A DNA stretch of 64,000 bases from Candidatus Binatia bacterium (lineage in GTDB: Bacteria > Desulfobacterota > Binatia > Bin18): contig CAXXHG010000043.1 in the NCBI GenBank assembly GCA_963666315.2, positions 288,001 through 352,000 on the forward strand, in the 5' to 3' direction. Numbering within the stretch: the first letter of the stretch is position 1; each line of letters begins with the position of its first letter. The position numbers and the translations under genes were made by a program. A model generated the notes under the pieces. The model saw only the letters and a program-made list of their open reading frames with translations, was not told the origin of the DNA and searched no databases. Shown piece by piece: positions 23,841 through 54,478 of the stretch.

Positions 23841-26288
<2,448 letters not shown>

Positions 26289-26360
26289 TTAAAGAGTAGC
26301 ATTTTCTCTGTCTTACGTAAACCGGAGGGGATATCATATATTCAGTAAAACACGTTTTTA

Positions 26361-27515
26361 CTAATTAATTTTCATGGGCATAATGATATAAGAAAATTGG
26401 TCGTTTTCTTTGGTCTGGAGCAGTCCTGGACTCATCTCATCTTTAAGGGAAAGTATGACCGTTTCTCCCTCAGTCATGACATGTAACGCCTCTATAATAT
26501 ATCTCCCATTGAACCCGATAGATAACCCGTCTCCATCGTATGAAGTAGGAATCTCCTCTGTTCCCTCCCCCAAGTCAGGAGTATTGACCGAAATATCTAC
26601 CTTGCCTTTCTCAAATTGTAATTTTACGCCGCGGGATCTTTCTGTAGTCAATATGAGAATGCGGCGAAGAGCACTGAGAAAGTCGTCACGTGAAAATTCG
26701 ATGCGGTGCTTATGCTCTTTTGGGACAATCTGCTGGTAATCGGGAAAGTCTCCTTCTATCAGACGCATAGAGAGTTCAGTTGTATTTTTCCTCAGGTTTA
26801 CGACTGACTCATTGATAGATATTTCTATTGTTTCCTCGCTCCGCTCAAGGAGTTTCCGTGTTTCAACCAAACCTTTTTTAGGAAGAATGACACTCGGCCA
26901 ATCGGGTAGAGAAGGAAGATCAACCTCCTTTTCTATAAGAGAGAGGCGGTGGCCGTCGCTGGCAACCATACGAATCTTTCCCTCTTTATGTGTTTCTAGA
27001 TGCACGCCGTTCAGGTTGAGACGGGTCTCATCTGGCGAGGTCGCAAAGAGAGTCTTCTCAATCATGTCCCGCAGCATTGGTCCGGGGAGGGAGATAAATT
27101 GATCAGCCAAGGCAGCGTTTTCTTCTTTGTGTTCCTTTCGTCCGGTTATAGTAGGAAACTCTTTTGGATCCAGGCTTGCGATTCGGAAGCGAGATTTTCC
27201 ACTATTGATCTCTATCCATCCGTTTCCGCTCGAACGTAAAAGGACCTGGCCTGACGGCAGTTCACGAATAATCTCATAGAGTTTTCTTGCATCTGCTGTA
27301 ATTGCTCCAGTAGTTTTCACCTTAGCCTTACACTGCTGACGAATCCCAATTTCAAGGTCGGTTGCTCCAAGGGAAATGATTCCCTTTTCCCCTTCCTGTG
27401 GGTCCGCTTCGATGAGAACGTGAGAAAGCATAGGAAGAGATGAACGTTTTTCAACCACACCTTGGACGAGGTATAAACACTGAAGGAGGTCTTCCTGATT
27501 GACGCTGAATTCCAT
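26361..27515 (-). CDS. dnaN: DNA polymerase III beta clamp
   Basis: ATDLEIGI, SDGHRL, RLIEGDFPDY, IIMPM. Confidence 0.98.
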   Translation of the reverse strand: MEFSVNQEDLLQCLYLVQGVVEKRSSLPMLSHVLIEADPQEGEKGIISLGATDLEIGIRQQCKAKVKTTGAITADARKLYEIIRELPSGQVLLRSSGNGWIEINSGKSRFRIASLDPKEFPTITGRKEHKEENAALADQFISLPGPMLRDMIEKTLFATSPDETRLNLNGVHLETHKEGKIRMVASDGHRLSLIEKEVDLPSLPDWPSVILPKKGLVETRKLLERSEETIEISINESVVNLRKNTTELSMRLIEGDFPDYQQIVPKEHKHRIEFSRDDFLSALRRILILTTERSRGVKLQFEKGKVDISVNTPDLGEGTEEIPTSYDGDGLSIGFNGRYIIEALHVMTEGETVILSLKDEMSPGLLQTKENDQFSYIIMPMKIN

Positions 27516-27549
27516 ATTCCTCCCTTCTTCACTTTCTTATGAGCTGAAT

Positions 27550-27835
27550 TTTTTACTTCTCGCTCTCTTATTATTTTTATGATTACTATTATTTCTTATA
27601 CTTCTATTATTCTTATTATTCATTAATATATAAAAGTAGTTAATAGTAGTAGGGCCTGTGGATATGTGAATAAGTGGGTTAAGTATTTGATTTATAAAGA
27701 CAAGTTATCCACAGGGGCTGTGGATAACTTGTCTTAGTCTCCTTTAACTGAAACAGGTTATCCATAGGTTATCCATAGGTTATCCATAGGTTATCCACAG
27801 GTTATCCACAGGTTATCCACAGGTTATCCACAGGG
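27550..27835. other. Replication origin oriC (dnaA-dnaN intergenic)
   Basis: AT-rich tract ~27565-27640; TAA-TAG-TAG-TAG trios 27641-27652; GGCC; boxes TGTGGATAT 27657, TGTGAATAA 27665, TTATCCACA 27705, TGTGGATAA 27719; seven tandem boxes 27758-27832. Confidence 0.93.
27755..27835 (+). repeat. Tandem 11-bp repeat (AGGTTATCCAY) x7, each unit carrying a DnaA box
   Basis: TTATCCATA at 27758, 27769, 27780; TTATCCACA at 27791, 27802, 27813, 27824; GG spacers. Confidence 0.98.
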
Positions 27836-27843
27836 AGAACGGC

Positions 27844-28496
27844 CTAGTGGGCAATCATGATTTCAATCCGGGTGAGGATATCGCGCAGCTCCCCGTCCTG
27901 TTTGAGCCGGGTCTCTATCGTATGACACGCATACAGCACCGTGGTGTGATCCGTCGACTCCGAGGAGAGATACACCACGCTGCCGCCGCCCTTTTTGACC
28001 AGCGTCTCGTGGCCAATGGCATTAATCAGATGCGTCTTCCGTAACCCCACCCCACCGTAAATGAACAGCGGATTGTAGTTCTTGCGGGGGTGTTTGCTCA
28101 CCGCCCGGGCGCCGTATGCGCAAATTGATTGCTGCCGCCCACCACAAACGAGGCAAACGTGTAGTGCGCCACCAGCCCGTTCTTCTGGGCCGCGGCTTTG
28201 TCTTCGGCCTGGGCCGCCTGCTGTTGCTCTTCGGCTGGAAACAGTTCGCCTTGGAGCTTTTCTCGCACATGGAGTACGAGGTGCGTCGGCTGCCCCCGCA
28301 CCGCGGCAAACGCCTCCTCTATGGGACCCACGAGATGGCTCAGCAGCCAATCGCGAAAGAGCGCACTGGGCACCTCCAGATGAAAGGTGTCCGCATCGAC
28401 GGACAGCGGCCGCAGTGGCTTCAGCCACGTCTCCGTCGACGTCTTGCCCACGCGCTCCTCCACCAGCCCCAACACCTGCTCCCACACCCGTTGCAT
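27844..28496 (-). pseudogene. dnaA: Chromosomal replication initiator DnaA, frameshifted and internally deleted
   Basis: Domain I ([17 protein letters not shown]), [15 protein letters not shown], frameshift ~28111, [25 protein letters not shown] fused directly to DHTTVLYA; 653 nt in total. Confidence 0.93.
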
Positions 28497-28522
28497 ACCG
28501 GCCCCTCCCGCCCCGGCGTCTC

Positions 28523-28602
28523 AGTTATCCACACTTGTGGATAACTCTCCAACTCCTTCTCTCCCCTATGAAAATCCCCTGCCCCCTCCGGAGTTGTCCA
28601 CA
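28523..28602. promoter_or_regulatory. DnaA boxes upstream of dnaA (autoregulatory, or second half of a bipartite origin)
   Basis: Inverted pair TTATCCACA (28525) and TGTGGATAA (28536); TTGTCCACA at 28594. Confidence 0.85.
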
Positions 28603-29118
28603 CATACCTCTCTCCGTACCTGTCTCTCTGCCCCAGGGGTACCCCGGTGTACCGACCACGAGATCGGGGGCAAGAGAAGCAGACCCATTGCTACTCAAAA
28701 ACTTGGTCTCTGATTTCGTCAGCCCTGACGGGCTAACGGTCTTGTGTCTTGAATGCGTCTTAAACGCTTTGGACACACAATGCAAGAAAAAATGCCCAAG
28801 CCGGGCGAAGTATGGTATTTTACTCACCAATCTCGCTCGTCTAACCCCGAGTGATACCCGCCGGTTGCCCCGCCGTGGCCGCCCCGGCCCTTAGCCTCTC
28901 GTTTTTCCAGGCCTTTCTTCTGCCCGCCGCGGGATAAAAACCCTCGTACGTCTCACTTTTAGTCCTATACTTGGCAGATTCACTATATCATCCTGGATAA
29001 GTGCCCCAATTCTCAGCGGGAGCGCCTCTTTTTGTAAGACCTGGTTTTTCCCCTTGACTCTCCTCTGGGCGGATGGTAGCAGAGGAAAATCTCAAAATTT
29101 GGGTAGTGGGTAGGATGG

Positions 29119-30402
29119 ATGTCTATATCGCAAAAGCTTTTCAAAGAAGCACAAAAATATATTCCCGGTGGAGTAAATAGTCCCGTCCGTGCATGGCGTG
29201 CCGTTGGTGGCGATCCGCTTTTTATCCAAAGAGGGAAAGGCTGCCGCATTACTGACGCGGATGGGCGGGAATATATTGACTACGTTGGATCGTGGGGGCC
29301 CTTGATCGCGGGGCACGCGCATCCACAGGTGGTCGGTGCACTTGAGCGTGTGGTGAAGCAAGGAACAAGTTTCGGTGCACCAACCGTAAAAGAAATTGAG
29401 CTGGCAAAAATACTCATTCAGACAATTCCCTCCCTTGAGAAAGTCCGCCTGACATCTTCCGGCACTGAGGCGACTATGACCGCACTGCGTCTTGCACGCG
29501 GCTATACCGGACGCGCAAAGATTATCAAGTTTTCCGGCGGTTATCACGGCCACAACGATGCGCTGCTGGTGAGAGCCGGTTCAGGAGCGCTCACGTTTAG
29601 CACCCCGGATAGCGAGGGCGTCCCTGAGGCGTTTTCCAGCCAAACATTAGTAGCGGAATACAACGACCTGGCGAGTGTGACAGCCTATCTTGAGGCCGAT
29701 CCCGGAGGGGTGGCCGCTGTTATTGTTGAGCCTGTTCCTGGCAATATGGGGCTTATTTTGCCAGAGCAAGGATTCCTCGAAGGATTGCGTAGGCTCACGC
29801 AAGAGTATGGAGTAGTCCTCATCTTTGATGAAGTGATGACGGGCTGCCGTTTGGCCCGTGGTGGGGTGCAGGAGATCTACAACATAGACCCGGACGTAAC
29901 GTGCTTAGGAAAGGTGATCGGCGGCGGTCTTCCTCTCGCTGCTGTTGGGGGCAAAGCGGCTATAATGGATGTGCTTGCCCCTTCGGGGGCTGTCTACCAA
30001 GCGGGCACGCTGTCAGGAAATCCATTGGCTGTGACTGCAGGTATTGAAACGCTCAAGCTCGTGCAGGGTCCTGGAGCCTATGAGCGCCTGAATGCACTTG
30101 GGGATATGCTTGCCGAAGGATTAAGAAAGGCTATTCGAGAGACTGAGACGAAGGCGTGCGTAAACCAAATGGGATCCATGTTCACCATTTTTTTTGGGGT
30201 GGAGCACGTCCGTGATTATGAGACGGCGACCCAGAGTGACACAGAGATGTTTGCTCGGTATTTTCACGGAATGATAGCACACGGCATCTATCTTCCCCCG
30301 TCTCAATTCGAAGCCGCGTTTCTCTCCGTAGCCCATGGCGAAGCTGAAATCCAAGAGACGATCCAAGCGGCCGGTACCGTCCTCAAGAGTCTGCGCGCAT
30401 GA
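29119..30402 (+). CDS. hemL: Glutamate-1-semialdehyde 2,1-aminomutase
   Basis: PGGVNSPVRA, SGTEATM, FDEVMTG, GKVIGGGLP, QAGTLSGNP. Confidence 0.98.
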   Translation: MSISQKLFKEAQKYIPGGVNSPVRAWRAVGGDPLFIQRGKGCRITDADGREYIDYVGSWGPLIAGHAHPQVVGALERVVKQGTSFGAPTVKEIELAKILIQTIPSLEKVRLTSSGTEATMTALRLARGYTGRAKIIKFSGGYHGHNDALLVRAGSGALTFSTPDSEGVPEAFSSQTLVAEYNDLASVTAYLEADPGGVAAVIVEPVPGNMGLILPEQGFLEGLRRLTQEYGVVLIFDEVMTGCRLARGGVQEIYNIDPDVTCLGKVIGGGLPLAAVGGKAAIMDVLAPSGAVYQAGTLSGNPLAVTAGIETLKLVQGPGAYERLNALGDMLAEGLRKAIRETETKACVNQMGSMFTIFFGVEHVRDYETATQSDTEMFARYFHGMIAHGIYLPPSQFEAAFLSVAHGEAEIQETIQAAGTVLKSLRA

Positions 30403-53291: not shown

Positions 53292-53324
53292 GACACACTG
53301 TACACTCCGTCTTGTCCCATATGC

Positions 53325-53384
53325 CTGGATGCCTGCTTGCGCAGGTATGACACAAGAAAGACTGTCATGCCCGTGGAAACGGGA
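53325..53384. repeat. Pair of REP-like palindromic elements, the second interrupted by IS30
   Basis: CTGGATGCCTGCTTGCGCAGGTATGACA and TGTCATGCCCGTGGAAACGGGA; the ATCCAG completing the second lies at 54405. Confidence 0.7.
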
Positions 53385-53387
53385 CCG

Positions 53388-54400
53388 TGGATTCACATTT
53401 GAAGTGCAACAGTTGCTGTAAAAGAACCTCTGCAGGAGTGTGGCAGGCAAGACATTTTCGGGGTGTGTTGTTGTAGGCACGGATGAGGGCATTAAAGCGG
53501 TTTGTGCGCAGGCTGGCGAGGGCGGTGTTGCGCGGGATGGTTCGCCGCATGCGACCAAGGGCATTTTCAATGCCGCCCTTCTGCCACGGCTTATGGGGGT
53601 CGCAAAAGAAGGTCTGAATGGCCAGGGGATGCAATTGGTAGTGCTGGACGAACTCGGTGCCATTATCGAAGGTCAGGGTTTGGCGCAAGCTTGGGGCAAG
53701 GGTTTGAGGAGCTGGACCATCAGCCGGGCCATGGGCTGAGCCGCCTTGCTGGGCGGTCGGGCCGCGAGGAGGACCGGGGAGTGGCGTTCATGCATGGTCA
53801 GGATGGCCGGTCCGTAGTGGGCGAATACCATCAGAGCGGCTTCCCAGTGGCCGGGGACCTGGCGGTCGGTGGCGCAGGGCGGGCGGTCCGAGAGGGGCCG
53901 GCGGGCTTTCGAAGAAGCGGACCGGAGAGCCGCGCTTCTTGCCGCGCCCGCCGCGTTTGGATTTGGCGCGGGGCAGATAGAGCCGCCAGCGGTCATCCTT
54001 GGTGCGCGCCAGTTGTGCATAGAGAAACCGGTAGATGCTCTCGTGGCTGATCACCTGGCTGCCGGGCTCAACCGCCAGCCGGCCGGCCACCTGCTCCGGC
54101 GCCCAGGGCCTTGACGCGCAGCTCCTTCTTGCGTTCCAGCTTCGAGCCGTTCCACCTCCGGGCGCAAGCCTGCTGATCGGCATAGGCCGGGGTGTAGGCC
54201 CCCTGGGTGCCCTGGTTCCGCTTTATCTCGCGAGCAATGGTCGATGGCGCGCGATCCACAACTGCTGCAACTTGCCGGAGCGAGCTCCCCGCGCCTTGAA
54301 GACCGGCAATCTTCCACCGCTCCTCAACTGAAAGTTGTCTGTATCTCTTGTCCATGACAACACCTTATCCAGCTCGTGTTGCACTTGGTTTGTGAATCTA
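53388..54400 (-). mobile_element. IS30-family element with degraded transposase
   Basis: IRs TGGATTCACATTTGAAGTGCAACA and TAGATTCACAAACCAAGTGCAACA; RAPSTIAREIKRN, WAPEQVAG, GHWEA, TFDNGTEF, PWQKGGIEN, NNTPRKCL split over several frames. Confidence 0.93.
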
Positions 54401-54478
54401 GAGAATCCAGGGGAGAGGGGGCTCGTCCCGCATGAGTGGTGTCCTGGACTTCGCTTCGCTACCTCCAGGCTACACGAC

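Follow-up and report, generated by a model that had tools for sequence, protein, structure and literature searches.

An apparently decaying dnaA beside oriC and an intact copy on a second contig in a Candidatus Binatia genome

Introduction

Here we describe a 64,000-nt stretch of the genome of an uncultured Candidatus Binatia bacterium (positions 288,001 to 352,000 of contig CAXXHG010000043.1, or C43, in assembly GCA_963666315.2, or G000; the whole stretch is referred to as the window), in which the dnaA gene next to the replication origin is a remnant, and a complete dnaA lies on another contig, C15, of the same assembly. The reading that we favour, at a probability of about 0.78, is that an old dnaA cassette occupies two loci, that gene conversion has homogenised its copies, that the origin-side copy was recently lost and that the C15 copy acts in trans. 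Initiation most likely still depends on DnaA, with an essential gene displaced from its origin. As such, we regard the finding as an uncommon outcome of ordinary mechanisms, in which duplication was followed by concerted evolution and by loss of the original gene, and which comes with a clean compositional footprint.

Results

The dnaA remnant in the window

Aligned to its intact paralogue on C15, the window copy carries all three lesions that had been described in an initial annotation of the letters: the loss of one nucleotide, the GLRKT change in Walker A and the fusion of VVYLSSES to TDHTTVLYA (Table 1). The glycine at the altered Walker A codon is kept in the C15 copy and in 11 of 11 relatives, by which we mean the dnaA loci from 11 other species of the same genus that served as comparison set. 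At the deletion junction, 2 nt stand in place of 680 nt, a net in-frame loss of 678 nt (226 codons) that removes Walker B, the sensors, the lid and most of domain IV, and of the C-terminal part of DnaA only the last ~35 residues are kept. Between the frameshift, the GLRKT change and the deletion of the remaining Bac_DnaA, no intact AAA+ module is left in one frame; the Bac_DnaA match in 27844-28116 is partial (profile positions 23-81 of 162, Pfam). The helix-turn-helix of domain IV is missing as well, a whole-assembly search with PF08299 (Bac_DnaA_C) matching C15 only. What the frameshift leaves is an open reading frame (ORF) of domain I, the linker, the first ~20 residues of domain III and four out-of-frame residues, in which DnaA_N (PF11638) is complete (E 3e-13, Pfam).

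Besides these lesions, the window copy has acquired a further glycine-to-arginine replacement (HPGK>HPRK, 28086) as well as A>T (28115), H>Y (27933) and E>G (27893) changes. Eight of the nine coding substitutions between the two G000 copies alter an amino acid. With the 11 relatives as reference, seven amino-acid differences can be polarised, and for six of them the window copy has the derived state, at residues without variation in these relatives; the C15 copy has one derived change, the conservative E22D, and one further site is uninformative. Because of this lopsided distribution, the window copy appears to be decaying, in the pattern of a dead gene beside a constrained one.

An intact second copy on C15

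A search of the whole assembly (4.99 Mb, 47 contigs) with Bac_DnaA hit two places, namely the window remnant and a full gene on C15 (G000:C15:279961-281292). The latter encodes 443 amino acids without a stop codon, has its own promoter and holds all four domains in one frame (DnaA_N, 45 bits; Bac_DnaA, 227 bits, 3-161 of 162; Hda_lid, 36 bits; Bac_DnaA_C, 101.7 bits, positions 1-69 of 69). This copy is probably expressed and functional. The initial annotation had recommended searching for another copy with the Bac_DnaA and Bac_DnaA_C profiles, which is how the second, full-length gene came to light; its suggestion that a relocated dnaA serves the origin is thereby supported, while its alternative of a switch to DnaA-independent initiation is refuted by the intact C15 gene.

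An outright loss of functional DnaA, as in some insect endosymbionts, is therefore next to impossible here. The origin-proximal gene is dead, and dnaA pseudogenes and losses are known in endosymbionts according to passages of PMC4389277, which describe for Blochmannia obliquus a dnaA pseudogene at the ancestral site and no other dnaA remaining. Our locus shares with these cases the recognisable pseudogene at the ancestral position. However, theirs are tiny genomes with few or no DnaA boxes, whereas here a genome of ~5 Mb has an intact paralogue with all domains and a box-rich origin that keeps six perfect DnaA boxes.

The two G000 copies are ~99% identical across a shared 1,128 nt. In blastn alignments, window 27955-28971 matches C15:280750-281767 at 99.0% identity over 1,018 nt, and window 27843-27952 matches C15:279960-280069 at 98.2%. 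The shared tract spans from ~475 nt upstream of the start codon to 1 nt past the stop codon, and beyond it the two loci are unrelated in sequence. Its leader contains an inverted DnaA-box pair (28524-28545) and a TTGCAT-17 nt-TAAGAC block (28757-28785) that is conserved in the genus. We consider this block a putative promoter; in a consensus promoter scan, it was not among the listed promoters. The initial annotation had called the ribosome-binding site, domain I, the upstream boxes and all oriC elements unmutated. This holds for the ribosome-binding site, the start codon and the box pair, which are identical to those of the C15 copy, but not for domain I, which is three residues off, nor for oriC, which has variant boxes.

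On C15, the cassette is flanked by a gene for an F420-type luciferase-like oxidoreductase on one side and by two ORFs followed by a CoA-transferase gene on the other, and no dnaN adjoins it. The two ORFs between cassette and CoA-transferase gene (96 and 320 amino acids; L003 11769-13300) had no match in Pfam or NCBIfam. GC skew is uniformly negative along C15, whose dnaA points in the direction of replication. The string GTATA(G/A)G stands at both cassette borders and may be there by chance. Genes for an ankyrin-repeat protein and a Uma2-family endonuclease are found nearby (L003 7264-7875 and 14830-15480). That C15 stems from another organism in the bin was considered and rejected, since all 47 contigs have a GC content of 0.54-0.57 and G036, a close relative described below, has the same second locus.

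The window locus is the original one

All 11 same-genus loci have hemL upstream of dnaA, and 10 of them have dnaN downstream; the remaining one is cut off by a contig end. All 25 same-genus genomes with a dnaA match had one match each; 11 of these are single-contig. The hemL-dnaA spacer of the window can be aligned to the relatives over its full length, across the duplication border at 28971. The flanking genes of the C15 cassette are separated by 58-154 nt in G004 and G008, with no dnaA between them, and the cassette together with the two family-less ORFs forms an insertion of ~3.5 kb without counterpart in either genome. Given the synteny in the genus, the full-length alignment of the spacer and the empty C15-type site, the window locus is the original and the C15 locus a derived insertion.

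Age of the duplication and signs of concerted evolution

The closest species, G036 (91% identity to G000 in DnaA, 88% in DnaN, 95% in HemL), has an intact dnaA in the hemL-dnaA-dnaN position, including the 680 nt that the window copy has lost. It also has ends of a second copy. At the end of its contig C47, the oxidoreductase flank leads into 75 nt of the dnaA 3' end, and its contig C79 starts with ~55 nt of the upstream end of the cassette followed by the other flank, the upstream junction being at the same position as in G000. Eight sites in the 75-nt piece tell G000 and G036 apart, and seven of them have the G036 state; the upstream piece does not differ from the canonical copy of G036 and is more than 12 sites off both G000 copies. 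Since G036 thus shows the same second-locus junctions with G036-type sequence, the second locus is probably older than the split of the two species. A recent duplication, as 99% identity might imply, was dropped because G036 shares the second locus.

Identity in dnaA is 99% between the two G000 copies versus 85% between G000 and G036. The duplication would thus predate the speciation while the paralogous ends group by genome, which is the mark of concerted evolution, and the two copies probably evolve in concert through gene conversion. Within the shared tract, 501 nt (28432-28932) are without a difference between the G000 copies, and the other 627 nt carry 12 substitutions. Since the region upstream of dnaA is only 75% identical between G000 and G036, constraint is not the explanation for this stretch, the simplest reading of which would be a recent conversion tract.

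These comparisons also bear on whether the remnant is kept for its 132-residue product, a domain-I protein that would modulate initiation, for instance by binding domain I of DnaA or the helicase and thereby damping firing. The promoter, autoregulatory boxes, ribosome-binding site and start codon of the remnant are identical to those of the functional copy, its ORF holds a complete DnaA_N, and domain I mediates DnaA-DnaA and DnaA-helicase contacts according to a section of PMC5448010. In addition, an identical protein cluster of 132 amino acids has three member sequences on two contigs, which hints that the truncated ORF was called in another assembly, too. However, gene conversion explains the perfect conservation of the 5' region, which is the region of 75% identity between species; domain I differs between the window and C15 copies by three nonsynonymous and one synonymous change, with no sign of constraint; and the changes past the frameshift (Walker A, the deletion, H>Y and E>G) are as neutral decay predicts. 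We therefore hold a retained modulator to be very improbable.

A GC step confined to the duplicated tract

GC content at third codon positions (GC3) is 0.795 in dnaA versus 0.444 in dnaN of G000, and 0.761 versus 0.436 in G036; hemL has 0.53 and 0.52, respectively. In seven low-GC single-copy genomes, dnaA GC3 is 0.42-0.51, and the difference between dnaA and dnaN lies between -0.07 and +0.02 in nine single-copy genomes, the GC-rich G013 and G016 included. The cassette is hence GC-rich against both its flanks and its single-copy orthologues, and a mere 1.0% of 1.3-kb segments of the G000 genome reach a GC content of 0.615. The step extends to noncoding DNA: the duplicated 475 nt of the hemL-dnaA spacer have a GC content of 0.56 in G000 and 0.56 in G036 versus 0.40-0.43 in 10 relatives, and the non-duplicated 147 nt have 0.49 and 0.48 versus 0.45-0.53. 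With third-position changes polarised by parsimony and G003 as outgroup, the common stem of G000 and G036 shows 29 AT>GC versus 1 GC>AT changes in dnaA, and 4 versus 7 in dnaN. Both the GC rise and the excess of weak-to-strong (W>S) changes are confined to the duplicated tract, and their borders coincide with those of the duplication.

A second instance comes from G019, a genome from a different family within the same order. Its two dnaA genes are both intact and share 96.5% identity over 1,789 nt of promoter and ORF, one at hemL-dnaA-dnaN and the other among luciferase-like oxidoreductase genes (L028 4719-6461, L029 4357-6135), and its dnaA GC3 is 0.16 above that of dnaN (0.585/0.427). Together, the compositional step suggests GC-biased gene conversion where two copies can pair. 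Such conversion was reportedly described for bacteria by Lassalle et al. in 2015 from genome-wide correlations with between-cell recombination. Our case is like theirs in its W>S bias and in a raised GC3 that is limited to recombining DNA, but it concerns a single intragenomic pair with sharp borders, and the bias is deduced rather than measured.

The GC step could alternatively reflect a foreign cassette, i.e. dnaA and its promoter from a GC-richer relative, gained by the ancestor of G000 and G036, inserted at the second locus and then overwriting the native copy by conversion. This would explain why the GC-rich tract and the duplicated tract have the same borders; GC-rich members of the genus do exist (dnaA GC3 of 0.76-0.78 in G013 and G016), and DnaA of G000 and G036 is ~5 points more diverged from every outgroup than main-clade DnaA, DnaN being ~3 points more diverged. 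However, DnaA and DnaN yield the same order of relatedness, with the main clade nearest (77-79% versus 77-81%), the GC-rich G013 and G016 are far (62-64%), and no donor-like lineage appeared among 8,000 scored homologues from a search of 5.8 billion proteins. The closer DnaA relatives in that search were eight clusters of the same 443-residue type (92-94%), followed by the main clade (75-78%), and the nearest named homologues, at ~69-71% identity, were from 'Candidatus Binatia bacterium' and 'Deltaproteobacteria bacterium'. The elevated dnaA GC3 in the independent two-copy genome G019 also speaks against an import, which we deem unlikely.

As a separate matter of composition, dnaN and gyrB (window 23841-27515) have a GC content of 0.45-0.47 in a genome of 0.55. 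Only 0.3% of 1.3-kb segments of the genome are at 0.46 or below, and dnaN is equally low in seven low-GC relatives and G036.

The origin keeps its DnaA boxes

The intergenic oriC has six perfect and three variant DnaA boxes beside its AT-rich element, and the only cluster of at least three perfect boxes in the assembly is found here (window 27705-27824). In total, the assembly contains 43 perfect DnaA boxes versus ~38 expected for its size. Replication presumably starts at this oriC. Three of the seven array boxes read TATGGATAA rather than TGTGGATAA; among 10 relatives, nine have perfect array units throughout and one has a single variant unit, at the end of the array. Another oriC box reads TTATTCACA, and TTATCCACA in all 10 relatives, and the oriC of G000 has one forward box fewer than those of the relatives. 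The array, which comes directly after the dnaA stop codon, varies in copy number from 4 to 14 in 10 relatives, with two copies in G036 (L006-L015, L019), and in G000 the unit with the G>A variant has multiplied to three copies.

We take the succession of box, GC cluster and trinucleotide repeats (Table 1) to be a DnaA-trio unwinding module. A canonical dnaA-dnaN oriC with DnaA box, GC cluster, DnaA-trios and AT-rich element was reportedly described by Richardson et al. in 2016. The present origin resembles it in the box, the GGCCC cluster, the TAC/TAT repeats and the stretch of 20% GC upstream of dnaN, yet differs in its array of 11-nt boxes, of 2-14 copies across the genus, and in that the adjacent dnaA is dead.

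Assembly and public sequencing runs

In the assembly, 32 pairs of repeats reach a length of 500 nt with no less than 95% identity. Among them, exact repeats of 2,110, 1,459 and 1,036 nt are resolved within contigs of 104-759 kb, and no N occurs at any position. The underlying reads must therefore have been longer than the dnaA repeat (1.1-1.8 kb). We further compared, as contigs over window 26800-29600, four public runs from three studies (X1-X4); marine metagenomes are among the runs that carry the sequence. A 3,606-nt contig in X1 and an 82-nt contig in X2 span the deletion junction, and contigs of both runs cross the frameshift site without a gap. Full-length-type junctions occur as loose ends in X2 and X3, and both forms of the upstream border at 28971 are present in X3 and X4. 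Misassembly, the third possibility raised in the initial annotation, is not supported, given the presence of the junction in independent public runs and the resolved exact repeats of 1-2 kb. Exact-pattern scans of a metagenome collection for the deletion junction plus the oriC-side junction and for the promoter box pair returned no match.

Independently of this, k-mers of the DnaA-box array (27788-27833) reach depths of ~200-1,400x in X1, X2 and X4, where this organism is at ~3-5x, and one 389-nt contig at 65x runs from the array into unrelated sequence. The high depth means that other, far more abundant organisms there carry the same array.

Feature coordinates and a further repeat

The features discussed are collected in Table 1. 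Rfam at gathering thresholds had no match in the whole window. A repeat of ~1.1 kb at window 53304-54420 (C43:341304-342420) recurs at 98-99.9% identity twice on C32, on C46 and at C43:712 kb, and in a 0.57-kb piece on C21; it contains no convincing ORF and has no Rfam match.

Table 1. Features of the dnaA-oriC region, in window coordinates.
Feature	Position	Strand	Basis or remark
dnaA remnant (pseudogene), ancestral hemL-dnaA-oriC-dnaN position	27844..28496	-	653 nt; Pfam and alignment to C15 copy
132-aa ORF left by frameshift	28098..28496	-	ORF list; DnaA_N at residues 3-64
Frameshift, one G lost from GCGGCGGCCC	28110..28111	-	pairwise alignment with C15
Walker A codon GGG>CGG, GLGKT>GLRKT (GGVGLGKT to GGVGLRKT)	28039..28041	-	alignment with C15 copy
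Deletion junction, ...VVYLSSES joined to (T)DHTTVLYA	27953..27954	-	alignment with C15 copy
Tract shared with C15 (promoter, leader, dnaA ORF)	27843..28971	-	blastn; borders by alignment
dnaA promoter and leader, in both copies	28497..28971	-	alignment with 11 relatives
oriC, dnaA-dnaN intergenic, 328 nt	27516..27843	-	box scan; layout common to 10/10 relatives
Tandem head-to-tail array of 11-nt DnaA boxes	27753-27834		4 perfect and 3 variant boxes
Inverted DnaA-box pair	27703-27729
DnaA box, then GGCCC cluster and TAC/TAT trinucleotide repeats	27639-27673
AT-rich stretch	27541-27640		GC 0.20
hemL, divergent upstream neighbour of dnaA in the genus	29119..30402	+	87-91% identity to upstream neighbour, 11/11 relatives' loci
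dnaN	26361..27515	-	79-82% identity to gene downstream of dnaA in 10 relatives
gyrB	23841..26228	-	beyond dnaN from oriC

Discussion

We propose that a dnaA cassette of ~475 nt of promoter and leader plus the ORF came to lie at two loci, the ancestral one between hemL and oriC-dnaN and that on C15, and that the second copy would already have been present in the common ancestor of G000 and G036. Gene conversion may have kept the copies alike since then. In the lineage of G000, the origin-proximal copy would recently have been inactivated by the frameshift, two Gly>Arg replacements (one of them in Walker A) and the 678-nt in-frame deletion, and have entered neutral decay, with the C15 copy supplying DnaA in trans to an origin that retains box array, unwinding module and AT-rich element. 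On balance, an essential initiator gene would have left its origin by duplication and subsequent loss of the original. A more elaborate version holds that the cassette has been at two loci since before the species split, that GC-biased conversion lifted GC3 from ~0.5 to ~0.8 in the tract alone, and that the dead origin-side copy represents a handover and may yield a domain-I fragment and titrate DnaA, given that its promoter would still be autoregulated. To this version we give slightly less than even odds.

Several observations weigh against the proposed history. Among the listed contigs of the four public runs, none joins the remnant (27843) to the DnaA-box array and oriC, and those of X1 and X2 instead connect the cassette's 3' end to a C15-type flank; one X1 contig even has the order C15 flank, remnant, hemL flank, which neither of the G000 contigs shows. 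The second copy of G036 is known only from its ~75 and ~55 nt at contig ends, and such ends can be overlap k-mers in a graph assembler. Cumulative GC skew of C43 falls to ~220 kb, is flat to ~400 kb and then rises, with the locus at 315.8 kb within this broad minimum (220-400 kb), which does not pinpoint the origin. Besides, just two independent duplication events link duplication to a high GC3, G000 and G036 not being independent of each other.

As to G036, three differences from its canonical copy argue for a separate second copy in this species. As to the public runs, their contigs are of k=31 type, by which the DnaA-box array is not crossable, and X1 and X2 have no depth at 26800-27739. 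The assembly is the one source of the link between remnant and oriC, and the blank stretches count neither for nor against the proposed history. The C15-type joins in X1 and X2 are, we think, graph artefacts or chimeras, because contig depth is low (2.7-3.6x), the border and the first distinguishing site are 50 identical nt apart, more than one k-mer length, and the oriC branch enters an array whose k-mers, from other organisms in the sample, reach 500-1,000x; they could also reflect a rearranged strain or swapped copies.

Swapped copies would mean that the intact dnaA truly sits at hemL-oriC-dnaN and the broken one is the extra copy at C15. A redundant new copy is a priori the one expected to decay, phasing across the 501 nt without a difference (28432-28932) needs long reads, and contigs of X1 and X2 run without interruption from the window-type 3' piece and the deletion junction into the C15-type downstream flank. 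However, the assembly was built from reads longer than the 1.1-1.8 kb repeat, as exact repeats of up to 2,110 nt are resolved in contigs of 207-759 kb, a swap would need two switch errors, the second within 110 nt that bear two distinguishing sites, and the joins in X1 and X2 are explicable by the identical border and the array branch just mentioned. A swap is thus improbable in our view, and we retain the loss of the origin-side copy as the preferred reading.

More than one dnaA-family gene per chromosome is not without parallel. Chlamydiae carry dnaA1 and dnaA2, which are old, diverged paralogues, unlike the copies described here, which are 99% identical (96.5% in G019) with their promoter included. 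The class-level relatives G020, G022, G023, G024, G027, G028 and G030 have, in addition to the main gene, a strongly diverged second member of the DnaA family with 35-47% identity to the query. A separate search for related loci in genome contigs, from which records near the genome of the window were excluded, gave only distant DnaA loci of 50% identity or less, and these were not used. Most genomes by far carry dnaA in a single copy, as stated in a passage of PMC3080875. A full-text literature search on second dnaA copies, paralogues and pseudogenes found no paper on a dnaA pair homogenised by conversion.

Concerted evolution of duplicated prokaryotic genes as such is exemplified by tufA/tufB. 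A survey of such long-lasting cases comprises 26 genes, and in its main text dnaA has 0 occurrences (PMC6053082). Like the duplicates of that survey, ours has paralogues that are closer within a genome than orthologues are between species, and a duplication common to two species; it differs in that one partner is inactivated and in the large GC3 rise of the converted tract.

In summary, the gene dnaA is usually treated as a single-copy, origin-linked marker, and the present locus shows that it can be duplicated together with its promoter, can occupy two sites past a speciation and can be lost on the origin side without loss of DnaA. Before the complete genome has been searched, a dead dnaA beside oriC is thus no evidence of DnaA-independence. 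Tools for annotation or origin prediction that are anchored on dnaA would run into conflict here, with dnaA and oriC-dnaN on different contigs. Prior evidence for GC-biased gene conversion in bacteria is mostly genome-wide correlation; the sharp GC3 step in two related species, weaker in G019, therefore offers a compact natural test case for this process.

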